In this document: positions 9,668-64,000 of the stretch, in pieces
Numbering within the stretch: the stretch's first letter is position 1
How the letters are laid out: each line of letters starts with the position of its first letter
Source: an uncultured Gammaproteobacteria bacterium
GTDB lineage: Bacteria; Patescibacteriota; Patescibacteriia; UBA11705; JABHMO01
Assembly: GCA_964565345.1 (NCBI GenBank)
Contig: CAZMEQ010000002.1
Coordinates: 7,133-71,132 of the forward strand
Direction: 5' to 3'
DNA: 64,000 bases
Program-made: the position numbers and the translations under genes
Notes under the pieces: generated by a model
Seen by the model: only the letters and a program-made list of their open reading frames with translations
Database searches by the model: none
Told to the model about the DNA's origin: nothing

Positions 9668-9700
9668 TACTCATTACCCGTTACTTATTATTTATTTTTA
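9600..9700. repeat. Short GTAAC/GTTAC-rich palindromic repeat element (copy A), inserted between the nrdD body and the glycyl-radical domain
   Basis: Minus-strand reading agtaacgggtaatgagtaatgagtaactgggttggttggttacttgttactagcatctggttactag. It aligns with the 60446-60516 copy: agtaacgagtaat, GGTTACT(G/T)GTTACT and CTGGTTACTA. Confidence 0.55.
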
Positions 9701-13356: not shown

Positions 13357-13384
13357 ATCTTTTAAAAGTTATAAGCGAGATAAG

Positions 13385-13450
13385 CGAGATAAGCCTCAAT
13401 TCTTAATTTGCTTATCCACTTACTTACTTAACTAGCTTACTTTTTCGTTT
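13385..13450. repeat. Intergenic hairpin element with tandem 9-mers (ATAAGCGAG x2-3) and an opposing CTTAC-rich arm. Possibly a diverged relative of the GTAAC elements.
   Basis: ataagcgagataagcgagataagc ... gcttatccacttacttacttaactagcttac between ftsZ and ftsA. Confidence 0.3.
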
Positions 13451-13468
13451 CTCCCTCCCTTTTATATA

Positions 13469-23700: not shown

Positions 23701-26700
23701 ATCTAAATATTCTGCACCCAAATCACACTCTTCGTTACCATTTTTAACACCATTGCCACAGCAAGCTGAACTTCCAGACAATTCAGCGGGCGTGCAAGCC
23801 GCAAAATTATCCCAGAGACAAGTTTCAATGTTACAATTGGCGATTGGTGGCTCACACTCTTCGCCAGTTGAAATTGTTCCATCACCGCAAACAGCTCTAT
23901 ATTTTACACTTCCTTTCAACAAACAATTACTATTACAAGTTGTAGAAACCTGAGTATTATAAACATTATTAGTTATGGTCGCGAGTGGGGCTCCATCAGT
24001 TGCGCCATTATCGGGGTCATTTGTAGACCAGTCCCAGTCATAGTTGAGTGGGTTTAATAATTGGCCATTGGGCGAACACTTGTCTGGGGCACTGGCTGGT
24101 TGCACTGCGTAATTTATGGTCTCGCCTGGAACGCCAGCCACATAACCACCAGGAGTTACGCCAACTGAGTTAATGACGCACTGGTTAGGATCATTTTTTG
24201 TTTTAAAGACCCAGCTAAAACTATTAAATGCTGCCCCGGGGATAACACCCGTTGGATCATGGTGATAATTTAAGTCAATTAATTTTACCCCACTAATACT
24301 TTCCATATCTCCAGAAATTACAACGCGGTGGTAACGATTAGGCAACAAATTCATGTTATTTACCAAATCGATTGTTAACAAATTTTGACCGAAAGAAACG
24401 CCAGCAGCCGGCGCATACAAATAATTTAAATTCAAGGTAACACCAGGCAAAGCAGAAATTACGGTACACTCTTCAGTATCACAACTATAAACTTTTACAT
24501 TGTTTTGATTTTCCACCACAGACTCCTTCATCTTGGTGTTAAAGTTAACCCCCATTTGAGCGTTAATACAGGCTTCTTTACACTTTGGATAATAACTTGT
24601 AACACGTGGTTCACTAAAATTAATTTCTAAATCAGCTCCCTTCTCGTATAATAAGCTATCAGCTGGCACCACGGCGTTAGCCAATATCTGGACTAAATTA
24701 CTTTCGGTTGTTTCTAAATCAATAGTCGCATTACATTCACACCCCTCACTAAATTGAGAACAACCGCCAGGTTGGCAAACCAACTTATCCGTACGTGTAG
24801 CATAAACGCCAATGTCATTACGTCTTTCGGTTGCAGCTGTACAATATGGCAAAGCACCAGGAATCGGCTCAACTAAGCAGGCATAACCCTTAGCCTCGGC
24901 TTTTTGCGCATCTGCTGCATCTGGAACTGTCCAAACCCACGGCTTATCAATTAAACTTATTTCTTGACACTGGTACATGCCAGTAACCCAGTATTTTTGA
25001 ATTTGTTGTACTGAAGTTATTTTACCTTTAGAAGGCGTCATTAAAAAATTATCAGGGACACAGTCAGTGGCTTTAGTTTTAAAATTCCAAACATAGCTTT
25101 GCGTCATAGTTTTACCTGGAACACCTGGTGCAAAACTATTTGCCGCCACACCACCTGGGCCGCCAACTATTTCTACTTGATACCAAGAATTTGCAAATAA
25201 ATTATACTTATTGCCTGATTTTTGAATTATATTTGGATAGGCATTAGTTCCAGGAGCGCCACCACCAGCATAGCTGGCAAACAAAGAAAATGAAGTCATG
25301 TTTTCATTAGAAGCGGCACAAACACACCCCTCTGTTCCAGGCTCACACTTAGCGCCCAACTTTGTACAAACAATACTGGCCGGCTGAGTACCGACATCAC
25401 TGGGAGCGATATTAGATAATTGACTGGAAAGACAATTAGGTGCGGTACAAGCAGTAAAGTCACAAGGAGTCTCGCTATCCGAAGCAAGACAACGTCGAAT
25501 AATAACATTGCCATTCAAGCTTGCTTCGTTAATTAACATGTTAAAGGTTGCTGAAATCAACCCATTAGGACAAGCTAATTTATCCTCTTTTTTAGGCGAA
25601 GGCGATTGTCTATAACCAGCATCAGTAGCAAAATCAGTCACAAAACAATTTCGTTCAATAACAGCTGGAATTTTAGGGATTACTCCAGTACTCATAACCC
25701 AAGCATACTCAGACTCATGGGTTACAATAGTAGAGCCACAAACATCTTCTTTGGTTGTTTTCGTTCCTTTGTTTGTACAAACTCCATTAGAACAACAAAA
25801 TTGATCGGCCTTACAAGATTCGTCATTTTTACAAGCACCAACCTTAAATTCAATAGCATTGCTTGCAACTGAACAATCTCCTCCCTCCAAACGAACACCG
25901 CCCGTAATTGCCTCGGCCGGAACGCGTGCCTTTTCTATAGTTTCAGCGCCCCAAACAATATCCCCCGCTTCATTAACCGGAATACGGTTGTCCTTATCTT
26001 TTACAAAAGTTAAATTATATAAATCTTTAGTGCCAAAATTTTCACCTGTGACTGTAAATTCTGTAGCAGCCGGTCCATTGCTTGGAGATAAACCGCACAA
26101 ACCCGGACCCGGAGCATTAGTGTTTACCACAAAGAAACGGTTATTACTTGGTAAACTCTGGCTTGTAATAACCTGGACCCAATAATTACCAGGACTTAAA
26201 CTCATGGCCTGATCGCCCTGTAACTTATTTGCTTCGGGCACCTTAACTATAATCTCGGTATCAGACCAGCTTCCAGCACCACAAGCAAAATCAGCAATAA
26301 AAGCAGGCAAAGGATTTCCATCCTCATCAGTTGCCTCTACAAATCCACCCTCGCCATTGTCCTCCAAAAGTTTTAAAATTACTTGACCCTGGGCGTCGCC
26401 AAAATTACTGCCAGCAATACTGATCATTTGTTTTACCGGAGCACTTTCTACACAAGTACAATCTGGTGACCCCACGATACAACAACTGTCATCAGCCTTT
26501 TTGCATGTTTTTGGCGTAATTTCAGTGATCGTAGGTAGTGCTCCTGGGTTTCTTACCGTAAAAGAAACAGGATTACTCAAAACATTAAAACAACTACACC
26601 CTGGAGAGCCTTGCTCACAACTTTCAATACAAGATTCAGCGCCAGATTCACAACCGTCTTTAACTTTGGAACAACGCTCCCCCTTACCAACAACAACATC

Positions 26701-29097
26701 GTAAATACCTTTATCTATTTGTGGGACACGAGCCCCCTCTATCTTTGTATCAGACCATAAAATAGTAACAGCTGCTTCTGTATCACCAAAATAAACAGCA
26801 TCGTCTTCTGCTTTTAACTGCCCATCTGGAGGATTACCAAATTTTTCACCCGACAACTGAACCAAAGTCCCGGCGACACCGTCCGAAGGCACCAAAGGAG
26901 CGCACAACCCTGGATAACGTAAAATTGGGTTGCGCACAAAATCTCCCTGCCAACCTTCGTCATCATCTTCGGTATCATCGAATCTATTATTGCCTTCGTT
27001 ATCTTTATTTTTCGTAACAACCTTAATTGGACCTGTTCCTACACCTTCCGGGACTTTGACTATAATTTGATTATTAGTCCAAGCACCAGCAGAGTCACAA
27101 CCTAGTTCTGCAGGTAGAGTGTATTTTTGTCCTGCCTCAACACCCTCACTAAACAAAACTCGACTTTCATTAATATCATAAGAAGAAAATCCATTCCCAT
27201 ATATAGTCACAAAATTACCGTCAATGCCCTCTTTCGGATTCGCGTTATAAATTATCGGCAAAGACTTACAAACACCTGTTGTTTCACCTTCTTTAATTTC
27301 ACAATAACCATTGGCACAATCTGAATCCTGCGTACAAGGGCCCTCATCACATGCCCCACAAGCGGGATCACCACAAATTATTTCGCCAGCGTCGTCGCAA
27401 CAAAAATCTGGTCTTAAATAAACGTTTGTTTTCTTATTACTGCTATTACCATCAACATCATTCGCTTCTAGCATTAACCAATGTTCACCTAAAGCATACT
27501 TTTGTTTTCCGCCAGCATCCAAAACGTTAACTTCCCATGGCAACGAACCTGAATATATAAGAGGTGTTGAAGGCAAAGAAACTTCTCCTATTGCATCTTC
27601 CTGCCCAGTTACGTGATCAACATATAAAGAAATAAGTGCCAACCCAGCGTCATCTTCGGCTCCAAAAGGAATGTCCCTTGAATCTATGCTTTCCTCAGGG
27701 AATTTACACATGCTCTTATTAAGAGCATTAAAATATACTTTGGGTGGAGTAACATCGCATACATCCCCAGTAGTAAACTTTGCCGTACAAACACTGTCAG
27801 TGGCATTACAAATTAAAGGATCGCCATCAGCTGACGTTAAACCAGTGGCCCCCGCCTTTATGGTAATGGTATATTCAGTATCTTTTTTTAAGGCATATTT
27901 AGAAGAGTCAGCCTGGTCACACACTCCAGCTGGAACAAATTCCACTAACCGCCCACTATTTTTGACTACAAAAGTGCCGTCGACTGTACTAGGTACAGAC
28001 TCGACTATATCTAACCACATGTAATCAAACTTTAAACAGTTAGTGCCAGTACGTGCCCATTTAATATAAATCTTATCTCCGCCCAAACACGCAGCATCTA
28101 AATCGATTTCATTATTACCATTAGGCGGCAACCAATTTTCTTTTATTTTAACTAAGTCTGCTTCTGTTTTACCGCAAAAAATATCCATGGTGGCCTGATC
28201 GCCGGAAGATGAACTTTCGAATTTTAATTTACCTGATTTTTCTGTCGTAATTCCACTCACATCGTATTCAACCAACATCGGGGTTTCACCCAAATACGTA
28301 GCGCTACATATTACCCAATTAGGGTTAATTGTTCCATCATCTTCTTTTATTTGCGCTAAAATTTGGGCTCCATTACCTAGCACCTCCGTGACCTTAACTG
28401 GCTTAACTGTTATATTTTGATCGACCGTTTCTGCACTGCCAGATATTATAATATTGTTTTTTAATATTTCAGGAGTAGAAACAACCGCCTGGTTAAAAGA
28501 AATTCGCGGATGAACATTGATAATTTTTTGTTGGCCCACGGGAACTATTGCCTTTACCCTCAAATACGCCTCGCCATAAATATCAAGACCAGAATATTCT
28601 GTATAATGGGTGGCCGAAGTACAACCGGCATCTCCGGGAAAATCAATTGTGCCATCTTTATCATTGTCTTTACCATCAGAACAAGCATAATAATATGTGT
28701 CATCGGTCACTGCCCCTTGTAACTTACTTATGACAAATGAAACTATCGCATATGATAATAAGATAATGGCTAAACCAATGGCCGCATTGATTAAGTATTT
28801 TTTAGCTTTATCAACCTTGTCTGCTTCACCACCCGAAGTCATGTATAAATAGCCCCCATAAAGGGTTAAACAAAGAGCAATAACTCCCAAAAAACCTAAA
28901 ATTACTTTTATAATCTTTCCAATAACAACTTTTAAATCCGCCTTTTGTAAGCCAGCGCCCGATGCACCCGCAACAGTATCTAACCCAGCAGTAATATCAT
29001 CGTTAGCTAAGACAGAGGCACCAAGCGAAAAACAAAAACTCAAAACAATAAAGAAAGCGACAACAAAAATTAAATTACGAAAAAACTTTTTAGACAT
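17755..29097 (-). CDS. Giant (3780 aa) Cys-rich cell-surface protein. N-terminal signal followed by a pilin-like two-helix hydrophobic hairpin. Also Myxococcus-type Cys-rich CGNG..GEECD repeats, Cys-flanked DxDxDG calcium-binding repeats, a LamG/ConA-like segment and a C-terminal vWA (MIDAS DTSGS) domain.
   Basis: Single uninterrupted ORF. N-terminus ...VIGKIIKVILGFLGVIALCLTLYGGYLYMTSGGEADKVDKAKKYLINAAIGLAIILLSYAIV. Repeats CGDGTISTGEECE, CGNGVKNGNEECD and CGNGTVDAGEECD. CKDGLDNDGDGRCDWDGC. FAFFVDTSGSMRW. Ends in PPPPPPDEDELNY. Confidence 0.8.
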   Translation of the reverse strand: MSKKFFRNLIFVVAFFIVLSFCFSLGASVLANDDITAGLDTVAGASGAGLQKADLKVVIGKIIKVILGFLGVIALCLTLYGGYLYMTSGGEADKVDKAKKYLINAAIGLAIILLSYAIVSFVISKLQGAVTDDTYYYACSDGKDNDKDGTIDFPGDAGCTSATHYTEYSGLDIYGEAYLRVKAIVPVGQQKIINVHPRISFNQAVVSTPEILKNNIIISGSAETVDQNITVKPVKVTEVLGNGAQILAQIKEDDGTINPNWVICSATYLGETPMLVEYDVSGITTEKSGKLKFESSSSGDQATMDIFCGKTEADLVKIKENWLPPNGNNEIDLDAACLGGDKIYIKWARTGTNCLKFDYMWLDIVESVPSTVDGTFVVKNSGRLVEFVPAGVCDQADSSKYALKKDTEYTITIKAGATGLTSADGDPLICNATDSVCTAKFTTGDVCDVTPPKVYFNALNKSMCKFPEESIDSRDIPFGAEDDAGLALISLYVDHVTGQEDAIGEVSLPSTPLIYSGSLPWEVNVLDAGGKQKYALGEHWLMLEANDVDGNSSNKKTNVYLRPDFCCDDAGEIICGDPACGACDEGPCTQDSDCANGYCEIKEGETTGVCKSLPIIYNANPKEGIDGNFVTIYGNGFSSYDINESRVLFSEGVEAGQKYTLPAELGCDSAGAWTNNQIIVKVPEGVGTGPIKVVTKNKDNEGNNRFDDTEDDDEGWQGDFVRNPILRYPGLCAPLVPSDGVAGTLVQLSGEKFGNPPDGQLKAEDDAVYFGDTEAAVTILWSDTKIEGARVPQIDKGIYDVVVGKGERCSKVKDGCESGAESCIESCEQGSPGCSCFNVLSNPVSFTVRNPGALPTITEITPKTCKKADDSCCIVGSPDCTCVESAPVKQMISIAGSNFGDAQGQVILKLLEDNGEGGFVEATDEDGNPLPAFIADFACGAGSWSDTEIIVKVPEANKLQGDQAMSLSPGNYWVQVITSQSLPSNNRFFVVNTNAPGPGLCGLSPSNGPAATEFTVTGENFGTKDLYNLTFVKDKDNRIPVNEAGDIVWGAETIEKARVPAEAITGGVRLEGGDCSVASNAIEFKVGACKNDESCKADQFCCSNGVCTNKGTKTTKEDVCGSTIVTHESEYAWVMSTGVIPKIPAVIERNCFVTDFATDAGYRQSPSPKKEDKLACPNGLISATFNMLINEASLNGNVIIRRCLASDSETPCDFTACTAPNCLSSQLSNIAPSDVGTQPASIVCTKLGAKCEPGTEGCVCAASNENMTSFSLFASYAGGGAPGTNAYPNIIQKSGNKYNLFANSWYQVEIVGGPGGVAANSFAPGVPGKTMTQSYVWNFKTKATDCVPDNFLMTPSKGKITSVQQIQKYWVTGMYQCQEISLIDKPWVWTVPDAADAQKAEAKGYACLVEPIPGALPYCTAATERRNDIGVYATRTDKLVCQPGGCSQFSEGCECNATIDLETTESNLVQILANAVVPADSLLYEKGADLEINFSEPRVTSYYPKCKEACINAQMGVNFNTKMKESVVENQNNVKVYSCDTEECTVISALPGVTLNLNYLYAPAAGVSFGQNLLTIDLVNNMNLLPNRYHRVVISGDMESISGVKLIDLNYHHDPTGVIPGAAFNSFSWVFKTKNDPNQCVINSVGVTPGGYVAGVPGETINYAVQPASAPDKCSPNGQLLNPLNYDWDWSTNDPDNGATDGAPLATITNNVYNTQVSTTCNSNCLLKGSVKYRAVCGDGTISTGEECEPPIANCNIETCLWDNFAACTPAELSGSSACCGNGVKNGNEECDLGAEYLDKDKEACDPTTAEPEDNCVLVSKSKACSAGCLNTGTADGYTCGNKVPEPGEDVDDGNNKAGDGVNNKCLNEGAQVKFVAGLPICGNGTVDAGEECDSANPLCNEKCLITGFPSCVNPGENNCCGNSIVEDLTGAGLSMEECEKTACFKEVTCPTQVQNMAKCDSGDSGCTKVGNQCFCAEVTACPAGGKMQQACAVGEAGCVCEFPAWCTNKCTNIGSDSEYGSLCGNGLKELGEDSGCEALGTGTKGSPYQQATINTEKNTFNVYSVLLRLTPDIDSKNPDKPPVTYSLTKKIIAQTLETIQGQPQTKTGDTDIALRVPKSVYDEAVTASCSAETELFGGSSYSVPSNGAQDVCRNSIIVLYSTVKGEIKGGDSCICTDGGEQLMPDGKADMSKCDGATKVVGCERKSGMLFYYDAEVCANGELSSGEIDEFVSNSSKNWFVKTYNKVIEFVRNLLFKIGLAGPLKHCRGPEMTSDIKVTGNGTEMRGIPAELLLPNTTYKILFRNLKNKCNVGFTDLPKKITFTTGSELCRLDNVAVTPGDLFVMQSKQEFNYYAYPRSGAQNIFPVPGVYSWNWAWESTDTALATINPNAYAAVITTQTKNGQGQIKATATITEDSVAQLCTDEDTGAPCVAGGATCVCAKDQGNFNQIGAKFTGFGNIKVFICDNPWFGDVYNSYGRAIPAEYQYVDGQPTRKKFDLRLETTNNGQLKPSYLVEKEFNAGLFYCRDFGEDKILSDDLPLVGLMSGEFTEIDPKPRFGVYFDRNYDYVVSGANDNLDFLNRDGASETAKESWTISAWVYNDDLPQDRYVRLFYKNLSTDIASVPNQDHVQLGVRRWCATPVDPVCWFEVLNGSKQPSACNCTDENIKRSVVFKIKYGNNIIYRGIRDAAGLLNNGFNQIVLSYNKDSKSAILSINGKADVSEQETASMFVWPRDNLDCKTAGGTICDSGTPGCVCTSEKLDVIATPSMYDKLYVGGLGKTTVPLVSFGGYVDDFRVFHGEKTPSAIKTDEETGLAVAWTFNTDTNSNNGIGAFKCTADYSAEYCTPVSCVKNQPGCTCVNITSQCLPDGGSFKFKHHNITDIAKQKGIFYGDNSGWQELNVDVENQCSNGVDDDGNGLIDTKDHKCTSANDGWESPALFAQYFFVRKDDMDYPSTNDMVPDAISLRIYENPEALPPSLWYKRYAPNPAASVPETKSDCLYDSFGEFCYAGTQDGRTIYVSAANVNGNNVYNNIYLLSYSQNSNPATQNIFGQMVEFLKFNMNVLNAENVNKLKVIRDTKRLQDFVLMHEYLKVYKAQNNGYVPQLESGTLQRHFSNSVWDSWKNELSKAIGFDMPVDPINALYNVPPQPQCFLSGTTTACQEQETNCICDNISKPVLCGTDVYSNPLACGSDEQCAIPGMSCVECSNVYDNRACYNSSTQTFDSLYGYYSILDKTDKDYGKNLTYTYEVNDLDYTKYRLRVYYEQPQLNYKYVPLIETSNVGWDAIKQDPEEIPETPGDAPECMDGIDNDKNGKIDYPNDEGCSSSSDETEDYPYHCKDGLDNDGDGRCDWDGCCINGIGKTKQQCLADKAAGQPVNWLEKDYSCQENGVQKSTHKSEVYPAQCNDGQDNDGDGDIDYCKLDGSNEATCDKACSSEYDDKETKKVLFAFFVDTSGSMRWQDHDPEMAHQDLILSIVNGIDTPAGCIPGAPGCTHIDGIRDVMGNNAYFVLGTSKTSPTEDARRAYFPAGQADHFLGWLDCANGWENCVKTQDIATCNATYNCGGAGRCVYNYCTQANQCSSNVCSSGTCSGAAPVCSSPYIYDGNAYMALRIDNVFMDALNVYDTKMTKAGASVDYDQTVYIVITDADDTYNPESRAATITAANARGIPIHFIYIKTGALGVSNFNFWYRYHGLCAGQACTANTDCASCVSSTSCSNACVNNVCIAPTTEPSVCINDINHQGIWMQGSTAELETKLKNLMSKFTTLPPPPPPDEDELNY
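22980..23920 (-). repeat. Block of Myxococcus-type cysteine-rich repeats (CGNGxxExGEECD) inside the giant protein
   Basis: At least five units, CGNGLKELGEDSGCE, CGNSIVEDL...MEECE, CGNGTVDAGEECD, CGNGVKNGNEECD and CGDGTISTGEECE, located from the reverse complement of the nucleotide sequence. Confidence 0.6.
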
Positions 29098-48298: not shown

Positions 48299-48326
48299 TT
48301 GACTTTTTTATATTTTGTGCTATAAT
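48299..48326 (+). promoter_or_regulatory. Consensus-like sigma70 promoter (TTGACT, 16-nt spacer, TATAAT) with SD AAGGAGG at 48372-48378, driving the GC-rich cassette 1
   Basis: ttgacttttttatattttgtgctataat read directly. AAGGAGG lies 5 nt before the ATG at 48384. Confidence 0.5.
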
Positions 48327-48383
48327 GTAAGGTCGTAAAAACGACAAAAAGTTCTCTACAACAACGCTCGCAAGGAGGTTCCC

Positions 48384-49418
48384 ATGTCTCTGACCCTCAT
48401 CGGTATCATCGGTCTGTCCGTGATCGCGATGGCCGCCCTGGTGACCATGGTGCTGAAGAAGTGCCTGGTCGTCACCGAGTCGCCCAACCTGACCGTCGTC
48501 GGCGACTGGGGGAAGTCGCCGACCGACATCCTCAACCCGCCCTGGGAATTGATCTTCTACCCCGTCACCCAGGTGATGGGGGTCATCACGACCGAGGTGC
48601 AGCGGTACAACATGCCGCAGTGTACCCTGTCGTGCAGAATGCCCGACCCCAACGGTGGGGCAGGCATCGGGAAGATCAACACGAAGGAGGTTTCGCTCTG
48701 CTACCATTTCTACTTCTGGACCAGCAGCGAAATCCGCCTCCACTCACCTGGCACATCACTTCCCGCCGGCTTCTCGAAACTGATGCAACTGCGTAAGTTC
48801 TTCCAGTTCGTGGGATTCCTGGCCGACGGCAAGGTCGACTTCCCCAGCATGGAAGAGGCCCTGAAGGACAGCCTGCAAGGAGCCTTCTCCCAGATCAGCC
48901 GCACGCTGGAACTGGAAGAGGCCATCAACTTCCCGCAGGACAAGCTGGATGAGATCGCGCACGCACTACAGCAGGAGTTCTGGACCGAGGGCCTGCCCGT
49001 CAAGGTGGTGTCGCTCCAGAGGAATGCCCCGTTCGAACCGGAAGGTGAACTGGGCAAGTCCATCGCCGCACGTGTGGCGGCACTGGCCGCACTACCCACC
49101 AAGGTGGCCGAGGCCGAGAATGCCCGCCGTCTGGCGGTCATCAACGCCAATACCGCCCGTGAGGTGGCTGGCATCGAAGTCGAGACGGCAAAGCTGCAGG
49201 GCGACAAAGAAGTCGTCCGCATCGGCAAGGTGCTCGAGGCTTACCGCCTCGTGGCCCTGCCGCCCGAAGAGCAGGTGCGGCAACTCATGAACCTGGAACA
49301 GCTCCAGGTCTATCGCGAGATGGCCGCAAGCTCGAGTGCCAAAATCATGCTGGTGCCGACCGATGTTCTGTCCGGAATCGGCCGCGCGCTCAGCGCTTTC
49401 ACCGGAGGTCATCCATGA
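48384..49418 (+). CDS. SPFH/band-7 (stomatin/HflC/QmcA-like) membrane protein, GC-rich foreign-looking gene
   Basis: N-terminal TM. EAENARRLAVINANTAREVAGIEVETAKLQGDKEV ... LEQLQVYREMAASSSAKIMLVPTD resembles the Glu/Ala-rich helix and SSS.K..MP ending of QmcA/HflC-type SPFH proteins. GC in nearly every third codon position. Confidence 0.65.
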   Translation: MSLTLIGIIGLSVIAMAALVTMVLKKCLVVTESPNLTVVGDWGKSPTDILNPPWELIFYPVTQVMGVITTEVQRYNMPQCTLSCRMPDPNGGAGIGKINTKEVSLCYHFYFWTSSEIRLHSPGTSLPAGFSKLMQLRKFFQFVGFLADGKVDFPSMEEALKDSLQGAFSQISRTLELEEAINFPQDKLDEIAHALQQEFWTEGLPVKVVSLQRNAPFEPEGELGKSIAARVAALAALPTKVAEAENARRLAVINANTAREVAGIEVETAKLQGDKEVVRIGKVLEAYRLVALPPEEQVRQLMNLEQLQVYREMAASSSAKIMLVPTDVLSGIGRALSAFTGGHP

Positions 49419-50059
49419 ACCGAACCGTCACCATCTTCCTGTCCTCTGCCCTTGTGTTCGCGGGGCTCATCCTCGCGGACAGCATGTTCAACTGGGCGTG
49501 GTACTGGAAGGTGGGCGCGGCGGTGGGCCTGGGGATCATCCCCTGGTTCTTCGTTCGTCGATCGACCTCTGCCACCCCCGCAACCCCGGCCGCACCCGCG
49601 GCTGGCACTCGCCCCACCTGCCCCACCACCGCCCGCAGAGACTTCTGGGGCGACACGGCCATCCCGGCGGCAATCACGGTCGCTCTCTGGGCCGCGCTCG
49701 CCTACGGAGTCTGGTTCTGGGTCGTCATCCCGGTCGTGGAATCGGGCAAGGCAGACCCGCAGACCCGCGTCGTGAATAATGGGTTCGCCCATCACGACGC
49801 GACTTACCCGCGGGAAGTCAGTACCCACCCCTTCGAGGCCACCCTGTCGGCCAACCAGCCGACTGCGGTGTTCGAGGTCAAGGCCGGTGATCCCATCAAG
49901 ATCTACCGGCTGGACGCCCCGATCCGCGTCTGGGTCAAGGGGCAGAAGGGCTGGACGGAGTTTTCCACCCCCTACCGGTTCCGCCCCAAGCAGGACGGGA
50001 CACTCATGATTTCCTCTCCAACCCCGGGGAATCATGTGTACATTCACAACGAGGGTTAA
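49415..50059 (+). CDS. Membrane protein (3 predicted TM helices plus a C-terminal beta-rich soluble domain), plausibly the NfeD-like partner of the SPFH protein
   Basis: ATGA start/stop overlap with the SPFH gene. Hydrophobic helices IFLSSALVFAGLILA, VGAAVGLGIIPWFFV and ITVALWAALAYGVWFWVVIPVV. C-terminal beta-rich segment VFEVKAGDPIKIYRLDAPIRVWVKGQKGW. SPFH genes are commonly paired with nfeD (established pairing). The assignment here is an inference. Confidence 0.45.
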   Translation: MNRTVTIFLSSALVFAGLILADSMFNWAWYWKVGAAVGLGIIPWFFVRRSTSATPATPAAPAAGTRPTCPTTARRDFWGDTAIPAAITVALWAALAYGVWFWVVIPVVESGKADPQTRVVNNGFAHHDATYPREVSTHPFEATLSANQPTAVFEVKAGDPIKIYRLDAPIRVWVKGQKGWTEFSTPYRFRPKQDGTLMISSPTPGNHVYIHNEG

Positions 50060-50102
50060 AAAACGCCCCACTGCAGCAACTGCAGCGGGGCGTCATTTTT
50101 TG
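50060..50102. terminator. Bidirectional intrinsic terminator shared by cassette 1 and the convergent lipoprotein gene
   Basis: aaaaaacgccccactgcagcaactgcagcggggcgtcatttttt. An 11-12 bp GC stem with an A-run upstream and a T-run downstream. Confidence 0.6.
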
Positions 50103-52362: not shown

Positions 52363-52474
52363 AAAAATTTAAATTCTTAGTAAATTATACTATAAACGAA
52401 GTCCTTTGACAACTTAAAATTTTTGCTTTATAATGGCCCATAGTTCTGTTAATTTAAGGAAAATATCAGGTGAC

Positions 52475-52559
52475 GGGCGAGTGGCGAAGTTGGTAGACGC
52501 GCACGACTCAAAATCGTGTGGGGAAACTCATGAGAGTTCGACTCTCTCCTCGCCCACCA
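52475..52559 (+). tRNA. tRNA-Leu (anticodon CAA) with long variable arm and an encoded CCA
   Basis: Acceptor GGGCGAG/CTCGCCC. Anticodon stem cacga/tcgtg with loop cuCAAaa. T-arm gagag-ttcgact-ctctc. Discriminator A then CCA. Preceded by TTGACA-17-TATAAT. Confidence 0.75.
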
Positions 52560-52576
52560 TCTGGTATTTTTTCTTT

Positions 52577-52615
52577 TAAAAAAATAGCGACCGCAGGAGT
52601 GTTCCTTTGGTCGCA
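52577..52615 (-). terminator. Intrinsic terminator downstream of the GC-rich cassette-2 gene, also placed just after tRNA-Leu
   Basis: aaaaaaatagcgaccgcaggagtgttcctttggtcgc. Stem gcgacc/ggtcgc, with a U-run on the minus strand. Confidence 0.45.
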
Positions 52616-52621
52616 CATGAG

Positions 52622-53488
52622 TCAGGCCTGACGCACGGGCTTCCACTTGCCCGTGAGGTTCGTCCTTTCCCAGAGACGGATGTACTGTTCCGTCTTCTCG
52701 GATCGGATGCTCTGCTTCAGCAGGTTCTGCGCCTCGACAAGCTCGGGGAAGACCGACCGATCCAGATCCAGCCGCAAGAACCGATACAGATCCGGACCGA
52801 CCTTGAAGGCCGTACGCTGTACCAGAAGCTGGTCAGTCAGCTCGAAGAGCATGTTGGTCGTGGCATCCGTGATGGTGGGATCAGGGCGCACCCGCGCCTT
52901 GAACGCCTCGATGAGCTCGAGCGCGCGCTCGGCCAGGGTCCGATCCACGATGGTGATCGTGTTCACCCGGGCCATGACCCGCTTCAGTCCGTCGGTGCTG
53001 GTGAAGGTCACCTGCGAACGCAGGTTGCCCTTGGCATCTAGCAGATGCGAGAAGACGTGGGCCGTCACGTAGCCCTCGCGCGCGATGCTGGCCAGGACTA
53101 CTGCGCTGTTCAGCGCAAAGACCTGGGTCACCACTTCGTCCGTGGCCTGGCAACGTGCCCGCTCTTCGGCCATGACACGATCGAGCTCGCGCTGCTTCTG
53201 CGCCAGTTCTTCCTGTGCCGCACGCACGGCGTCACGTGCCTCGTCACGCTTCCTGGTCAATTCGCGCGATTTGTCCCGAAAGGCCTTAATGATGCCCTTT
53301 AGACCGGCTTCACGCTTGGTGCCATGTCGCACCAGATCGGCCAGAGCTTCCGAAGCATCGACGTACTGATGGTGCAACCTAGTCCAGGCTGCACGGGCCT
53401 TGGCCTCCGTCTTCTCCAAGACCTCGAGCTTTTTCTCGAGTGCTTTGACAGCGGACTGCAAGGTCCCAATAACTGTTTTGTGTCCCAT
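52622..53488 (-). CDS. GC-rich foreign-looking gene. Hypothetical protein with an N-terminal coiled coil of about 120 aa and a C-terminal globular domain of about 160 aa, of unknown function.
   Basis: 288 aa. Heptad-like Glu/Lys/Arg/Ala-rich N-terminal half (LEKKLEVLEKTEAKARAAW ... RKRDEARDAVRAAQEELAQKQRELDRVMAEERAR). No recognisable catalytic motif. Preceded on the minus strand by TTGACG-17-TATTAT and GAAGGAGG. Confidence 0.6.
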   Translation of the reverse strand: MGHKTVIGTLQSAVKALEKKLEVLEKTEAKARAAWTRLHHQYVDASEALADLVRHGTKREAGLKGIIKAFRDKSRELTRKRDEARDAVRAAQEELAQKQRELDRVMAEERARCQATDEVVTQVFALNSAVVLASIAREGYVTAHVFSHLLDAKGNLRSQVTFTSTDGLKRVMARVNTITIVDRTLAERALELIEAFKARVRPDPTITDATTNMLFELTDQLLVQRTAFKVGPDLYRFLRLDLDRSVFPELVEAQNLLKQSIRSEKTEQYIRLWERTNLTGKWKPVRQA

Positions 53489-53530
53489 GAAAACCTCCTT
53501 CAGGGAACTGCTCTCTTACTAGAACTTAAT

Positions 53531-53559
53531 ATAATAGCCAATAACCTGTTGTCCGTCAA
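53531..53559 (-). promoter_or_regulatory. Sigma70-like promoter (TTGACG, 17 nt, TATTAT) plus SD GGAGG for cassette 2, divergent from the tRNA promoter
   Basis: The reverse complement of 53525-53575 reads ...ttgacggacaacaggttattggctattat... The SD is the reverse complement of cctcc at 53495-53499. Confidence 0.45.
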
Positions 53560-53623
53560 TTGCAAGGCTTGCAGAAATTGTAATTTTAGCCTATAATGAA
53601 GTCACGATCGATTGCCACATTAA

Positions 53624-53699
53624 CGCGGGATAGAGCAGTTGGCAGCTCGCCAGGCCCATAACCTGGAGGTCGCAGGTTCGAGTCCTGCTCCCGCTACCA
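53624..53699 (+). tRNA. tRNA with anticodon CAT (Met, fMet or Ile-lysidine type). Position 1:72 is a C:U mismatch.
   Basis: Acceptor CGCGGGA/TCCCGCT. D-arm gagc-agttggcag-gctc. Anticodon stem ccagg/cctgg with loop ccCATaa. T-arm gcagg-ttcgagt-cctgc. Encoded ACCA. Confidence 0.65.
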
Positions 53700-53724
53700 A
53701 ATTTAAAAAGTTTATATATACCGC

Positions 53725-53801
53725 ACCAGGGTAGCTCAGATGGTTAGAGCGAGGGAATCATAACCCCTAGGTCGGCGGTTCGATTCCGCCCCCTGGTACC
53801 A
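53725..53801 (+). tRNA. Second tRNA with anticodon CAT (Met/fMet/Ile2 type)
   Basis: Acceptor ACCAGGG/CCCTGGT. D-arm gctc-agatggtta-gagc. Anticodon loop atCATaa with a GGG/CCC run in the stem. T-arm ggcgg-ttcgatt-ccgcc. Encoded ACCA. Confidence 0.65.
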
Positions 53802-59100: not shown

Positions 59101-60441
59101 TTAGCCTTTATTTAATGTTTCATCAATTCTAGTACGATCGCGTGGGAATAGAGTGGCCTTCTTGATATTATCAAGTCCTAATAATTGCCAAGTAACACGC
59201 TCCAAACCCATGCCAATTCCACCTTCAGGTGGCATGCCATATTTAAACGCTTGTAAATAATAGGCATAACCTTCTGGTTTTAAGCCGAATTTGATCATGT
59301 TGTTAACTAACTTTTCGTATTCATTGATACGCTGGCCACCAGTGACAATTTCTGTACCACGGAACAAGACATCAAAACTGCCAGTGAACCCTGGATCGGC
59401 TGGATCTTCATAAGTATACATTGGTCGTTTAGAAACTGGGTAGTGTGTAATGACTAAAAAATCTGAGTTCCACTTTTTCTTAGCGTATTCGCAAATTTGT
59501 CGTTCTTGATGCGGTTCTAAATCTGGTTCATTTAAACAGCCTTTTTCATTATACTCATCTTCAAGAATTTTTTGAGCTTCTTTTAACTTCATTTGTGGTA
59601 CGGGATGGACAAATTCTGGTAATTGAACGTTCAAAAGTTTAACTTCTTCTGGGCAAGCTTCACGAACACTGGCAATCATGGCCTCCAGAGTGCCGTAAAC
59701 CATTTCCATTACATCTTTGTAGCTGTTTATGTAACCCATTTCAAAGTCCAAACTTGTATATTCATTAATGTGACGATTGGTGTCGTGTTCTTCGGCGCGA
59801 TAAACATTCCCAGTTGTAAAAACTCTTTCGTAAATTCCAACCATTATTTGTTTATAAAACTGAGGGCTCTGGCCTAAGTACGCTTTGTTACCAAAATAGT
59901 CGATAGTAAAAACATTAGCACCGCCCTCAGTGGCACCAGCCACAATTTTTGGTGATTGAAACTCAGTAAAATCATTAGCTGTTAAATGTTTTCTAAATCC
60001 TTGAACCAAAGCGGCTTGAATTTTGAAAATAGCTCTTTGTTTATCAGCTCTTAAGTTGAACGGCATGTTGTCGAGATATGCATCCATGTGTAATTCCGCG
60101 TCTAAATCGTAAGGTAAGGTTTCAGCGGCCGCTAAAATCTTTATTTCCTTTGCCAAAACTTCCACATTACCAGTGGCTTGATTAGGATTCTTTTGTTTTT
60201 CTCCACGTTCATTTACAATACCGCGAATTTCTAAAACATATTCAGGTCGTAATTCTGGCAAAACGTTTTTTGACGCTTCATCTAACTCTGCTGGCACCAT
60301 AACCACTTGGACCAAACCACTGCGGTCGCGCATATCACAAAAAACAATCTTGCCCATGTTACGGCGGGCGTTAATCCAACCTTTTATGGTTATCTCTTTC
60401 CCTATTTTTTCTGTAGTTTCACGATTTAATGTTCTTTCCAT
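59101..60441 (-). CDS. aspS: Aspartate--tRNA ligase, archaeal/eukaryotic-type class IIb (possibly non-discriminating)
   Basis: Short (446 aa) class IIb enzyme. Motif 2 YRAEEHDTNRHINEYTSLDFEMGYI. Motif 3 GGIGMGLERVTWQLLG. OB-fold N-terminus. Distinct from the adjacent AsnRS. Confidence 0.7.
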   Translation of the reverse strand: MERTLNRETTEKIGKEITIKGWINARRNMGKIVFCDMRDRSGLVQVVMVPAELDEASKNVLPELRPEYVLEIRGIVNERGEKQKNPNQATGNVEVLAKEIKILAAAETLPYDLDAELHMDAYLDNMPFNLRADKQRAIFKIQAALVQGFRKHLTANDFTEFQSPKIVAGATEGGANVFTIDYFGNKAYLGQSPQFYKQIMVGIYERVFTTGNVYRAEEHDTNRHINEYTSLDFEMGYINSYKDVMEMVYGTLEAMIASVREACPEEVKLLNVQLPEFVHPVPQMKLKEAQKILEDEYNEKGCLNEPDLEPHQERQICEYAKKKWNSDFLVITHYPVSKRPMYTYEDPADPGFTGSFDVLFRGTEIVTGGQRINEYEKLVNNMIKFGLKPEGYAYYLQAFKYGMPPEGGIGMGLERVTWQLLGLDNIKKATLFPRDRTRIDETLNKG

Positions 60442-60445
60442 ATGT

Positions 60446-60516
60446 AGAAAGTAACGAGTAATTAGTAACGAGTAACGAGCTTTACTGGTTACTGGTTACT
60501 GGCCCCTGGTTACTAA
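60446..60516. repeat. Short GTAAC/GTTAC-rich palindromic repeat element (copy B) between aspS and asnS
   Basis: agtaacgagtaattagtaacgagtaacgag ctttactggttactggttactgg cccctggttactaa. The two arms are near reverse complements with an 8-nt periodicity of GTAAC. It matches the copy at 9600-9700. Confidence 0.55.
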
Positions 60517-60517
60517 T

Positions 60518-61819
60518 TTAAGGATAAATTCTATTAATCATACGTGGGAATGGAATAGTTTCGCGGACATGCTGCACACCACACATCCAACCAACCAAAC
60601 GTTCCAATCCAATTCCGAAGCCCGAATGAGGTACACTGCCGTATTTGCGCAATTCCAGATACCAAGTGAACGCCTCTTCGGGCAGCTTATCATCGACGAT
60701 ACGCTTTTTCATGGTAGCATAATCATCTTCACGCTCAGATCCACCAATAACTTCGCCATGGCCCTCGGGAGCAATCATGTCAGCGCATAAAGCTAGATCA
60801 CCTTCGCGCTTCATGTAGAAGGCCTTGATATCAGCCGGCCACTTTTCAATAAATAATGGCTTATCAAACTTGCTCATGATCAAAGTCTCGTCATCATTAC
60901 CTAAATCTTCCCCGTCTTTGATATCGGACCCTAATTCTTGCAACATTTTTATTGCTTCTTTATAAGTTAAACGATTGAACGGAGCTTTAATTTTTTCTAA
61001 AGCCGTTTTATCGCGTTCTAAAATGTCTAATTCTTTTTGATTAATTTCTAAAACTTTTTTAGCTACGTGCGCAATTAAATTTTCTTGCACTTCTAAATTC
61101 ATTTTATGATCATAAAAAGCCATTTCTGCATCCATCATCCAGAATTCAGTTAAATGTCTCTTGGTTTTTGATTTTTCGGCGCGGAAAACTGGGCCAAAGT
61201 CAAAAACTTTTCCGAACGAAGCGATCGCTGCTTCGATGTATAATTGTCCGCTTTGTGAAAGATAAGCCTTACCTTCGTCAAAATATTTCATTTCGAATAA
61301 TTCAGTTGTTCCTTCGCAAGCAGCGGGTGTTAAAATTGGTGAATCAATTTTAATAAAACCTTCGTTATTCAAAAATTCATAAATCGCATTAATAACTGTG
61401 TTGCGCACACGTTGGATTGCCCATTGTTTGGGTGAGCGTAACCATAAATGTCTATTTTCAAGTAAGAAATCCGGGCCATGTTCTTTTTTACCAATCGGAT
61501 AATCTTCAGCGCGTTGAAAAAATCTTAAGGACTTAACTTGAACTTCATATTCATCTAATTTGGGGTGTTTAGAAACAGTACCCACAATTTCAACTGTACT
61601 TTCTAAGGTCATTTCTTCCATAACTTTCCATGTCTCAGCATCGACGGCTGGTTGACTAACGATGCACTGAGCAAAGCCAGAGCCATCGCGCAATTGAAGG
61701 AAACCAATCTTGCCCGAAGAACGAAAATTATAAACCCAACCCTTTAACAAAACTTCTTTGTCTAAATTTGCTTTAAGATCTTTAATGTATGTTTGTCCCA
61801 TAGAATTATTATTGTTCAA
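60518..61819 (-). CDS. asnS: Asparagine--tRNA ligase
   Basis: FRAEKSKTKRHLTEFWMMDAEMAF matches AsnRS motif 2 ([21 protein letters not shown]). GFGIGLERLVGWM motif 3. Confidence 0.85.
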   Translation of the reverse strand: MNNNNSMGQTYIKDLKANLDKEVLLKGWVYNFRSSGKIGFLQLRDGSGFAQCIVSQPAVDAETWKVMEEMTLESTVEIVGTVSKHPKLDEYEVQVKSLRFFQRAEDYPIGKKEHGPDFLLENRHLWLRSPKQWAIQRVRNTVINAIYEFLNNEGFIKIDSPILTPAACEGTTELFEMKYFDEGKAYLSQSGQLYIEAAIASFGKVFDFGPVFRAEKSKTKRHLTEFWMMDAEMAFYDHKMNLEVQENLIAHVAKKVLEINQKELDILERDKTALEKIKAPFNRLTYKEAIKMLQELGSDIKDGEDLGNDDETLIMSKFDKPLFIEKWPADIKAFYMKREGDLALCADMIAPEGHGEVIGGSEREDDYATMKKRIVDDKLPEEAFTWYLELRKYGSVPHSGFGIGLERLVGWMCGVQHVRETIPFPRMINRIYP

Positions 61820-61912: not shown

Positions 61913-62067
61913 ATTTTATTTTAACAAAATTAGAACCCGCAAATAGGGCTGTCATTGTTATTATCCAAGGTGGTAATGCGAATCGATTGCATATAAATAT
62001 ATCTTTTCATATCTAATTTAATTTGACAATATCCTTTGACAAAATTAACCGATAAGGTTATCATTAA

Positions 62068-62979
62068 ATGTCCCGAGTGAGGACAAGATCAACCATTTCG
62101 GACACTCGAATGCTAAGTGAATGGGTCCTTCCTGGTGGACTGTACTACCCCGCTTCAACCTGCGTCTTGGGCGTTGCTATTGCACTGCATGGTGCGCACA
62201 AGAAGAATGAGTTCGGCCTCGGGCTGGGAGTAGGAATCGTCCTCTTGTCGATTTCCACCATACTCATGCTCTCTCCCTCCGTACAGGCTGCATCGGAAAT
62301 CCCCTCCTGCCCGACCTGCTTCATGGTTCCGGGCGAGAAGACCAAGCCCAAGAGCGTCCTGACCACGTCCGAAGTCAATGCCACAAAGACGCCCCAGGCC
62401 TATCCGCAGACCTACTTCGTCGGCCACTACCAGGTCGCGGTGGAACTCTACGAAAACGGCACCACGGCCGTCAGCGGAGAGCTCTACAAGCTCACCATCC
62501 TATCGTACGACGGGCGGATCCAACACGCACAGTTCGTGAATGTCGACCCCACGGTCAAATCCAGCACCGAACCGAACTGCTGGATCATCATGACCAACGA
62601 CTTCCGCGAACTGGAGGGCCTGAGCTTCCACGACGGCCCCCTGGTACCAATGTCCATCTGCTACCAGGAGGGACGCTTCAAGGACGATTCCGAGAGTGAG
62701 CTCTTCCGCTACTTCTCGGATCGCAAGGCCGACATCCTCCAATTGACCCGCGACTGCCGGGCCAAGCAGAGCTGCCTCCTGGACCGCGAAACCACGGCCC
62801 TCATCGTCGAGCTCTTCATCGCCAAGGCGTACCTCGAGCTGTCGGGCTTCAAGCCCGCCCTGCCCGAGAACTGGCACTGCGGGATGTCGCTCGACGAGCA
62901 ACGCCTCCTGGAGATGCGAATCCTGAATCGAATCAAGACGCGTCTCATCGACCACGTGATCCACAAGTCACGTCCGTAG
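62068..62979 (+). CDS. GC-rich foreign-looking gene. Hypothetical membrane-anchored protein with an extracytoplasmic Cys-containing domain. Paralog of the 63115-63816 product.
   Basis: Hydrophobic helices (LGVAIALHG, GLGLGVGIVLLSISTILML). CPTCF. NCWIIMTNDFRELEGLSFHDGPLVPMSICYQ aligns with WCVLVEDTADFYGMAELPMSAGPSVPMVMCLD of the next gene. TTGACA-17-TATCAT lies only 3 nt before the first ATG, so the start may instead be MLSEWV at 62107. Confidence 0.55.
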   Translation: MSRVRTRSTISDTRMLSEWVLPGGLYYPASTCVLGVAIALHGAHKKNEFGLGLGVGIVLLSISTILMLSPSVQAASEIPSCPTCFMVPGEKTKPKSVLTTSEVNATKTPQAYPQTYFVGHYQVAVELYENGTTAVSGELYKLTILSYDGRIQHAQFVNVDPTVKSSTEPNCWIIMTNDFRELEGLSFHDGPLVPMSICYQEGRFKDDSESELFRYFSDRKADILQLTRDCRAKQSCLLDRETTALIVELFIAKAYLELSGFKPALPENWHCGMSLDEQRLLEMRILNRIKTRLIDHVIHKSRP

Positions 62980-62985
62980 CCCTAC

Positions 62986-63023
62986 ACCCCCCCTCCTTTC
63001 CTCTGATCGGAGGGGTGTTTTTA
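62986..63023 (+). terminator. Intrinsic terminator after cassette 3
   Basis: cccccctcctttcctctgatcggaggggtgttttta. Stem cccctcc/ggagggg followed by a T-run. Confidence 0.5.
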
Positions 63024-63056
63024 TACGCAAATTTACCTAAATTTAGGCAAAAACTA

Positions 63057-63085
63057 TTGACATTACCTGTGTTTTATGATATCAT
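63057..63085 (+). promoter_or_regulatory. Sigma70-like promoter (TTGACA, 17 nt, TATCAT) for cassette 4, preceded by the palindrome CCTAAATTTAGG at 63036-63047
   Basis: ttgacattacctgtgttttatgatatcat read directly. Confidence 0.5.
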
Positions 63086-63114
63086 ATAAGCAACCAACTG
63101 CCTTAGGGCACATC

Positions 63115-63816
63115 ATGTTCGACCTGAACAAGATCGTCCGTCGCGTCGCGCTCGAGAACCTCCTGAAGATCGTGCTGCTCGTGGCGGCGCTGATCCTCGT
63201 CATCTTCCGCCTCTCCGGGGAGCTCCAGGCCCAGCCCCGCCCCACGATCGAAGCTGCCGAGTACGCCACCACCTGCTACGAGGACAACCAGTTCCATGTG
63301 CGCAGCACCCCGTCCTGCGGCGCCTCGCACTGCACGTACTTCATCGAGATCTCGAACCGCAAGAACGATGAAGTCCTCATGTTCTTCTGGGCCGACTCGC
63401 CGTTCGTGCAGGTTCTCTCGCCCTGGTGCGTGCTGGTCGAAGACACCGCCGACTTCTACGGCATGGCCGAGCTCCCCATGAGCGCCGGCCCCAGCGTCCC
63501 CATGGTCATGTGTCTCGACAAGCACAGCCGGTGGTACGAAGCCCCCCAGATGGCCATCTACACCTTCCGCTCACGCCTGCGCGAGCTCCTGCCCACCATC
63601 AACAACGGTTCGGGCCAGGACCTGAAGGTCGCCATCGTCGAAGCCCTGGCGCTGCAGGAGATCCTGCTTCGTGCCGGGCAGAGCAGCAACCTGCCGAACC
63701 TCGAGCAGGCGCTCCGTCTCGCCGCCGCTCGCGCCAAGCTCTCCTACTCGCTCATCGAGATGGAGGTCAAGGAACGTTGTGACCGGCGCCTCCAGTTCCG
63801 CGGGCTCTCCAAGTAG
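63115..63816 (+). CDS. GC-rich foreign-looking gene. Hypothetical N-terminally TM-anchored protein with an extracytoplasmic Cys-containing domain. Paralog of the 62068-62979 product.
   Basis: TM LLKIVLLVAALILVIF. Conserved block PWCVLVEDTADFYGMAELPMSAGPSVPMVMCLDKH shared with the upstream gene. The ORF-track start at 63076 lies inside the AT-rich promoter. The composition switch and MFDLNK mark the real start. Confidence 0.55.
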   Translation: MFDLNKIVRRVALENLLKIVLLVAALILVIFRLSGELQAQPRPTIEAAEYATTCYEDNQFHVRSTPSCGASHCTYFIEISNRKNDEVLMFFWADSPFVQVLSPWCVLVEDTADFYGMAELPMSAGPSVPMVMCLDKHSRWYEAPQMAIYTFRSRLRELLPTINNGSGQDLKVAIVEALALQEILLRAGQSSNLPNLEQALRLAAARAKLSYSLIEMEVKERCDRRLQFRGLSK

Positions 63817-63837
63817 ACCCGCACACCTGCTACGCAG

Positions 63838-63876
63838 CTCCCTACCTTTCCGCGGATCGGTAGGGAGTTTTCTTTT
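63838..63876 (+). terminator. Intrinsic terminator after cassette 4
   Basis: ctccctacctttccgcggatcggtagggagttttctttt. Confidence 0.55.
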
Positions 63877-63883
63877 ATTCCAA

Positions 63884-63912
63884 TTGACAAAAAGACCCTA
63901 TCAAGTTAAACT
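63884..63912 (+). promoter_or_regulatory. Sigma70-like promoter (TTGACA, 17 nt, TAAACT) for cassette 5
   Basis: ttgacaaaaagaccctatcaagttaaact. It is followed by the inverted repeat at 63917-63935 and SD GGGGAGG at 63944-63950. Confidence 0.45.
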
Positions 63913-63916
63913 CCTT

Positions 63917-63935
63917 TGATGCCATGACGGCATCA
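63917..63935. promoter_or_regulatory. Operator-like inverted repeat TGATGCC-atgac-GGCATCA between promoter and SD of cassette 5
   Basis: Perfect 7-bp arms separated by 5 nt, positioned at the expected transcription start region. Confidence 0.4.
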
Positions 63936-63957
63936 CGAATTCTGGGGAGGATACACC

Positions 63958-64000
63958 ATGCCCGAACAGACCACTCCCTGTGGCCGCGTCGTGACCACCA
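63958..64000 (+). CDS. Start of a fifth GC-rich gene (MPEQTTPCGRVVTT...), truncated by the window end
   Basis: ATG 8 nt after GGGGAGG. GC-rich codons. It continues beyond the window. Confidence 0.4.
   Translation, partial: MPEQTTPCGRVVTT

Follow-up and report, generated by a model that had tools for sequence, protein, structure and literature searches.

The stretch of DNA analysed here (the window, 64 kb long) belongs to a small genome of the Parcubacteria group (CPR/Patescibacteria), a relative of GW2011_GWC2_39_14. It carries two copies of a short palindromic repeat, each of which fills the spacer between two co-transcribed genes. Copy 1 (60450-60514) is found between the gene of a class IIb aminoacyl-tRNA synthetase of the Asp/Asn/Lys type (60518-61819, minus strand; Pfam tRNA-synt_2 and tRNA_anti-codon) and, downstream, that of an archaeal-type aspartyl-tRNA synthetase (59101-60441, minus strand), assigned by Pfam and by the NCBI name of a member of its cluster at an identity of at least 90%. 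A promoter consensus scan places a promoter-like site at 61855-61827, upstream of this gene pair. Copy 2 (9621-9685) separates two open reading frames (ORFs) of nrdD. The upstream one is a large fragment of 688 residues (9702-11768, minus strand), which includes an ATP-cone and positions 1-530 of the 562 positions of the NRDD profile. The downstream one is a small fragment of 46 residues (9473-9613, minus strand), which covers profile positions 530-562 and includes the glycyl-radical motif RVVGY; nrdG comes next after it. All the genes flanking the two copies are on the minus strand, and they frame the hairpins tightly, the upstream stop codon being located 3 nt before copy 1 and 16 nt before copy 2, and the downstream AUG 8 and 7 nt after them, respectively. 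The top strand, defined as the one on which AGTAACG comes first, is the plus strand at copy 1, antisense to the flanking genes, and the minus strand at copy 2, where it corresponds to the mRNA sense. A first-pass annotation of the same DNA had placed the two copies at 60446-60516 and 9600-9700, in opposite orientations, and it was right on both points.

The AUG of the aspartyl-tRNA synthetase gene, after copy 1, is devoid of a Shine-Dalgarno motif. Only about 5 of the 50 ORFs of the window have a motif of this kind, their leaders being A/T-rich, and translation initiation in this genome seems to proceed largely without Shine-Dalgarno pairing. The absence of such a motif after the window hairpins is thus normal for the genome.

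Sequence and folding of the window copies

Both copies are built on the same plan, (AGTAACN)3-4, a loop and (NGTTACT)3-4. Copy 1, detected by pattern matching, Tandem Repeats Finder and folding, reads AGTAACG AGTAATT AGTAACG AGTAACG agc TTTACTG GTTACTG GTTACTG GCCCCTG GTTACT on its plus strand, with the left arm at 60450-60479 and the right arm at 60482-60514. Copy 2, recognized by folding and by its 80% identity to copy 1 over a common core length of 65 nt, reads AGTAACG GGTAATG AGTAATG AGTAACT ggg ttggttg GTTACTT GTTACTA GCATCTG GTTACT on its minus strand. The ends are conserved (AGTAACGRGTAAT ... CTGGTTACT). The layout is also common to the two copies and comprises an outer helix of 6 bp, one mismatch followed by another 2 bp, an internal loop of 5x5 in which GTAAT is opposite a degenerate GCNNCTG unit, and inner helices made of heptamers. 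A recurrence of GTAAC every 8 nt had been proposed; the period given by Tandem Repeats Finder is 7 nt in all arms, with 4.3 and 4.7 repeats in the arms of copy 1. The hairpin pattern has three matches in the window versus 0.00 in shuffled sequences, and GTAACNNGTAAC occurs 11 times versus 3.0 by chance. The density of GTAAY/RTTAC motifs reaches 7 per 80 nt, versus 0.33 expected, solely at copies 1 and 2, and the AGTAACN family has exactly two members within the window.

Both copies fold as hairpins. The predicted RNA folding energies of copy 1 are -29.2 kcal/mol on the plus strand and -21.1 on the minus strand (z-scores of -4.5 and -3.8), and those of copy 2 are -26.2 kcal/mol on the minus strand (z-score of -6.0) and -13.5 on the plus strand. 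The z-scores of the window copies range from -3.8 to -6.0 for RNA and from -2.3 to -4.5 for DNA.

A further structure lies between ftsA and ftsZ (13371-13441, minus strand; Tandem Repeats Finder and folding, with FtsA and FtsZ identified by Pfam) and had initially been taken for a looser relative. It is a different repeat-built hairpin, in which a perfect ATAAGCGAG array of 2.7 copies (13371-13394) faces a GTAAG/GATAAGC arm (13410-13441). Since its unit differs and its fold is weaker than that of the AGTAACN copies (z-scores of -2.1 to -3.0), it is not a member of this family. A strong Shine-Dalgarno-like GGGAGG is found just past the ftsA stop (window 13440-13468), and another one just past the stop of the nrdD large fragment in a related genome (L123, 885-900). 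At both sites, the next AUG is 95-165 nt further downstream with a repeat-built structure in between, as if the insertion of these structures had separated an old ribosome-binding site from its start codon. Another repeat, the octamer TTGCTTTC (GAAAGCAA on the gene strand), forms an array of about 22 copies at 5752-5929. A peptide-chain release factor gene (6111-7205, minus strand) lies upstream of this array, and a 23S-rRNA-intervening-sequence-protein/bAvd-like gene (5381-5740, minus strand) starts 11 nt downstream of it. The same octamer provides one arm of the structure in the nrdD spacer of L123.

Two other features of the window may be mentioned. A single ORF of 3780 residues (17755-29097, minus strand), preceded by an ORF of 717 residues and followed by a small protein with bacterial TSP3 repeats, probably encodes a giant surface protein typical of CPR genomes. 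Three GC-rich islands (48300-50100, 52400-53800 and 62000-64000; 50-65% GC in a genome of about 39% GC) contain open frames on both strands, with a strong Shine-Dalgarno sequence before some ORFs, and show no Pfam or Rfam matches. Homologues of one of their ORFs (48384-49418, 344 residues) are confined to close Parcubacteria relatives, GW2011_GWC2_39_14 among them. Clade-specific genes, foreign DNA and structured RNA are candidate natures for these islands.

The split nrdD gene and spacer turnover among relatives

The nrdD split was analysed with a query in which the end of the large ORF was fused to the small ORF. Two classes of homologues were retrieved. The first comprises intact NrdDs, about 55% identical, which span the junction. 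The second comprises closer relatives (52-90% identity), from Magasanikbacteria, Falkowbacteria and others, which end at the same point after CPxCDEE-GY. The split falls at position 530 of the Pfam NRDD profile both in the window and in the Magasanikbacteria- and Falkowbacteria-type relatives. Separate glycyl-radical ORFs of 46 and 53 residues are called in L123 and L124; in L125, the motif is encoded past the stop, at a place where no gene is called. Three different states of the spacer could be observed. The hairpin is kept in L157, where an AGTAACN hairpin orthologous to copy 2 lies in an alignment that runs through the spacer with 79% nucleotide identity. It is replaced in L123 by a different, 8-mer-based hairpin within a spacer of 180 nt, and it is absent from L124, where the spacer is only 5 nt long.

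Judging from these alignments, the nrdD fission is old and conserved in the clade, and the hairpin is one of several occupants of the spacer. Because the split is common to relatives with a 5-nt spacer or with a different repeat, it was not caused by the hairpin. The split nrdD looks like a functional two-piece glycyl-radical enzyme of this Patescibacteria clade, of which a keyword search of the literature returned no description. Copy 2 had been described as lying inside the nrdD locus, which is correct in the sense that it stands between two nrdD ORFs, but it is not an insertion disrupting an intact gene. The mobility that had been read from this interruption loses its basis, since the split is ancestral and also present in L124 and L123. 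A false lead is thereby removed: nrdD is here an old conserved two-piece gene rather than one broken by a mobile element.

The spacer upstream of the aspartyl-tRNA synthetase gene (aspS) was compared among relatives in which the downstream protein shows an identity of 90% or more. In L174-176, the whole element is inverted, including the asymmetry between its G-G and C-C mismatches. In L169-173, only the GGTTACT arm is present, as a direct array of four units that does not fold (z-score of -0.1), and the hairpin is thus not indispensable at this site. The three lineages also differ in the few bases that separate the element from the stop and start codons. These inverted and one-armed copies suggest dynamics at the DNA level, although an inversion that keeps the mismatch asymmetry is not predicted by simple template switching. 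Changes of another type are seen in Chloroflexota, where the arms differ by whole units at four loci (L131, L152, L156 and L166) judged by eye to be orthologous from their common loop and flanking sequence.

The main rival explanation is a mobile element of non-autonomous type (MITE, PATE or REP-like), for which a hairpin-recognizing enzyme encoded elsewhere, for example an IS200/IS605-type or RAYT Y1 transposase, would provide mobility in trans. Single-stranded hairpins would be excised and re-inserted preferentially beside stop codons. Several observations are in line with this possibility: the copies are dispersed, have a defined length of 65 nt and conserved ends, lie tight against stop codons, and occur in opposite orientations within the same aspS spacer of related genomes, and their unit is constant across phyla and GC contents. 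IS608 is known to insert 3' of TTAC, and this tetranucleotide is contained in every GTTACT unit. Moreover, the aspS-spacer copy of the window is closer to the nrdD-spacer copy of L157 (86% identity) than the members of the orthologous pair are to each other (75%), but these values are inflated by the repeats. Other data are less favourable. No target-site duplication could be detected by eye at either window copy or in the three orthologous versions of the aspS spacer, and no conserved flanking target emerges, the bases on the two sides being gaa and aat at copy 1, and aata and agaa at copy 2. Pfam revealed no transposase or RAYT in 30 ORFs of the window, although 64 kb is a small sample. No candidate parent insertion sequence is present within the window, the whole element being itself an inverted repeat. 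Among the loci compared, no precise pair of empty and filled sites was found, and the in-register change of unit number at apparently orthologous sites points to slippage rather than to transposition. Transposition in trans is thus considered unlikely. From the initial description of the copies as REP/MITE-like, the REP-type character can be retained (dispersed, short, quasi-palindromic, outside genes), in contrast to the MITE character, for lack of a target-site duplication and of a transposase.

Hosts, gene position and base pairing across the family

The distribution of the family was explored with a strand-symmetric pattern (two AGTAAY/C units, a gap of 5-35 nt and two complementary units) in a sample of one genome per GTDB species, which yielded at least 120 loci. 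Among the 120 matches listed, 94 are from Chloroflexota, 8 from Patescibacteria and 18 from scattered other taxa, according to the record titles. The Chloroflexota hosts among these matches include Thermomicrobiales, Anaerolineae, Chloroflexia, Thermoflexales, Caldilineales, Dehalococcoidia and others, and individual metagenome-assembled genomes (MAGs) contribute 5-9 of the listed loci each. The typical form is (AGTAACG)n, a loop and (CGTTACT)n. A second pattern, derived from the ends common to both window copies, matched 43 metagenome loci with a GC content from 29% to 66%, and the family pattern had only 2 matches in viral contigs. The case envisaged at the outset, of only two copies without any conserved structure, is far from what is observed: copies are present in relatives and in many other genomes, and their arms covary. 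The AGTAACN unit is nearly identical in genomes of 29% to 68% GC and in different phyla. Local slippage alone can hardly account for this constancy, which points to a possible sequence-specific factor or to horizontal spread.

The flanks of the loci analysed contain about 58 additional hairpins built in the same way, many of them with other units, such as AATTTTC, GGGGTTC, AGGACTG, AGCAATG, AAGTGCA and others. The heptamer-hairpin architecture is thus generic in these genomes, with AGTAACN as its commonest unit, a dominance that is biased by the selection of the genomes for AGTAACN. In an Anaerolineae MAG (L035), a run of N corresponding to a scaffold gap (about 7600-7644) directly adjoins an (AGTAACA)n array, which suggests that arrays of this type break short-read assemblies. 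In a Thermomicrobia MAG locus with heptamer hairpins (L008), two tandem c-di-GMP-II-GAG riboswitch aptamers were detected at 3810-3895 and 4034-4118, both with scores that narrowly exceed the gathering threshold.

The family appears to be undescribed so far. No paper was found with the exact sequence GTAACGAGTAAC or a similar one, keyword searches on heptamer repeats in Chloroflexota, Patescibacteria or CPR did not retrieve the AGTAACN family, and a Thermomicrobium genome paper contains nothing relevant to these hairpins. Rfam 15 gave no match at the gathering score in the window or in 18 hairpin-carrying Chloroflexota loci, and only noise for the element itself at E-values up to 10. A relationship with integron attC sites was considered and rejected: only AAC and GTT match the RYYYAAC ... 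GTTRRRY consensus, the flanking genes are housekeeping genes and no integrase was found in the scanned ORFs. Uptake-signal-like sequences were another candidate that was set aside.

The position of the hairpins relative to genes was derived from heuristic gene calls on 168 loci and the window, high-GC loci included. As many as 175 of the 178 hairpins lie outside ORFs, with 3 inside; 85 are located between co-directional genes, 21 between convergent and 7 between divergent ones. In 74 of the 85 co-directional cases, the upstream stop codon is within the array or at most 20 nt away from it, and in 38 of them it is one of the TAA triplets of the array itself, in phase with the heptamers (offsets -12, -5 and +2). 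Every reading frame of an AGTAAC arm indeed contains a TAA, and the 5' arm is of this kind on both strands. Since TAA recurs every 7 nt and three units close all frames, the array often supplies the stop, and for the same reason a copy can survive only outside coding sequences. The next start codon is at a median distance of 24 nt overall. In low-GC loci, the distance from the stop codon to the hairpin is 0-16 nt, and that from the hairpin to the start codon is 1-11 nt.

A stable stem-loop directly after stop codons is reminiscent of an intrinsic transcription terminator or attenuator, and the excess of convergent over divergent spacers (21 versus 7) would fit this function. The stems, however, are AT-rich with regular mismatches and are not followed by a U-tract; in the window copies, UUUCUACAU or AGAAAAU comes after the stem, and then the AUG. 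A start codon 7-8 nt away (24 nt as a median elsewhere) leaves no room for a promoter. Neither the terminator nor the promoter consensus scan picks out the hairpins, yet the former calls canonical GC-rich, U-tailed terminators in the window, for example at 12039-12004. A terminator or attenuator function is thus very unlikely.

Another candidate function, in genomes nearly free of Shine-Dalgarno motifs, is that of a translational device, in which the upstream stop and the downstream AUG would be brought close to each other by the stem (3-16 nt plus 2-8 nt across the helix foot). On terminating, a ribosome would open the outer helix and start again on the next cistron, so that cistrons such as those of the two NrdD halves would be coupled. 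The scarcity of Shine-Dalgarno-like motifs in the window and the tight flanks of the low-GC loci are consistent with such a role, as is the fact that a split nrdD needs both products, even if L124 manages with a 5-nt spacer. The device would moreover depend neither on orientation nor on the nature of the repeat unit, in agreement with the observed variants. In Chloroflexota, however, the hairpin is followed by an ordinary spacer, in many cases with a visible Shine-Dalgarno motif. Genes separated by the one-armed variant or by the 5-nt spacer evidently function with no hairpin between them, and random insertion into very short spacers would also produce tight flanks. A dedicated coupling role is therefore judged rather improbable.

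The pairing between the arms is maintained across the family. The variable seventh base is engaged in a Watson-Crick pair in 88 of 123 cases, versus 55 expected, with all four pair types represented. At the Y:R position, T-A is found 20 times, versus about 10 expected, AGTAAT being matched by ATTACT at twice the expected rate. A conserved hairpin with covarying arms, adjoining start codons in low-GC genomes, could in principle be a strand-specific cis-regulatory RNA or a small RNA (riboswitch, protein-binding leader or thermometer), and a structured RNA motif had indeed been one of the initial suggestions. The data do not bear this out. The better-folding strand is the mRNA sense strand in 34 cases and the antisense strand in 44, nor do the wobble pairs favour the sense strand. 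The two orientations are about equally frequent among low-GC loci, and both orientations relative to genes are found even within one orthologous spacer. The loops are not conserved among the family loci, the flanking genes are unrelated housekeeping genes, and no Rfam family matches. This absence of strand bias argues against an orientation-specific RNA, which is scarcely credible here, and for a symmetric element at the level of DNA.

Proposed origin and comparison with known repeats

The interpretation retained, with a probability of roughly 0.55, is that the AGTAACN hairpins are REP-like or STRR-like palindromic repeats outside genes, generated and maintained at the DNA level. Each comprises three to six AGTAACN heptamers in tandem, a loop that varies and the complementary NGTTACT heptamers. 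The number of units would change through replication slippage, and the complementarity of the arms would be kept by selection or by template switching within the palindrome. Whole elements might flip, lose one arm or be replaced. In compact genomes, a copy would come to fill the spacer between two cistrons, from the upstream stop, often its own, to the next ribosome-binding region. Within an operon, its transcript would fold into a stable stem-loop whichever way the copy is oriented. By comparison with REP elements, the most plausible role of this stem-loop would be that of a barrier, or of a processing site, at the place where the upstream cistron ends, and it might also be a translational insulator.

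A more ambitious proposal is that the AGTAACN "heptad palindrome" represents a distinct, undescribed repeat class of Chloroflexota and Patescibacteria. It would either be propagated by a dedicated, sequence-specific machinery or pass horizontally from host to epibiont and back, and it would have been co-opted in Shine-Dalgarno-poor CPR genomes as a stem bridging stop and start, coupling cistrons that include those of the split reductase. This combination of features is a speculative and quite unlikely one. Some rooted phylogenies place Chloroflexota and Patescibacteria as relatives.

If the family is real at the suggested scale, so that each Chloroflexota genome carries many loci and the unit stays the same from 29% to 68% GC, it would be a major unannotated intergenic feature of two large, mostly uncultured lineages. 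Its practical consequences concern gene calling, which is affected by the stop codons that the arrays supply, and assembly, as illustrated by the gap found beside one array. The family may also serve as a marker, either in binning or of exchange between host and epibiont. It lends itself to the study of how simple-sequence repeats turn into structured, dispersed elements, and would make it possible to test, in genomes devoid of Shine-Dalgarno sites, if the stoichiometry of operons is set by hairpins placed against stop and start codons. Its significance would be higher if the conservation of the unit across phyla reflects a dedicated machinery or a coupling function.

Among known systems, the STRR of Cyanobacteria come close to the AGTAACN family, as tandem heptanucleotide units dispersed between genes. 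These short tandemly repeated repetitive heptamers were reportedly described by Mazel et al. in 1990. Their units are CCCCAGT, TTGGTCA and CAACAGT, mostly described as direct arrays, whereas the present unit is AGTAACN and its hosts are Patescibacteria and Chloroflexota. In Anabaena, the nif intergenic regions are said to have been characterized by Jackman and Mulligan in 1995 as "highly variable but structured"; here as well, close relatives differ in sequence but retain the potential to form hairpins.

MITEs and miniature elements of the Correia/NEMIS type are likewise small, non-coding, bearing inverted repeats and co-transcribed with their neighbours. MITEs differ in having terminal inverted repeats that match a parent insertion sequence and target-site duplications, neither of which was found for the AGTAACN hairpins. 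In their behaviour, the REP and BIME elements of Proteobacteria come closest. These are also short imperfect palindromes outside genes, present in many copies and in either orientation, for the most part within operons or at the 3' ends of genes. REPs form mRNA stem-loops without being terminators, as would be expected of the AGTAACN hairpins, which have no U-tract. In both cases the elements often abut ORFs and can even supply their stop codon; GTAG-type REPs are reported to do so through their TAG (PMC3733652). On the other hand, REPs are single palindromes of 20-40 nt, linked to a RAYT and with an unpaired GTAG or CGTC head. Such a head is absent from the window copies, which begin with AGTAACG and end with GGTTACT. 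The AGTAACN hairpins are 50-90 nt long and have arms of tandem 7-nt units, with GTAA(C) repeated within the stem.

A last comparison can be made with the TAACTGA direct heptamer repeats reported in intergenic regions of marine Beggiatoaceae, Cyanobacteria and Bacteroidetes (MacGregor 2015; PMC4679880). Both types are TAAC-containing heptamers placed directly upstream of starts that lack a Shine-Dalgarno motif, with stops in all frames and a patchy spread across phyla (PMC4679880), and the one-armed variant of L169-173 resembles such a direct array. The TAACTGA arrays have no predicted structure and a strong orientation bias (PMC4679880). The AGTAACN units, in contrast, rotate to TAACCAG or TAACGAG, and they are inverted, form hairpins and show no bias of orientation.
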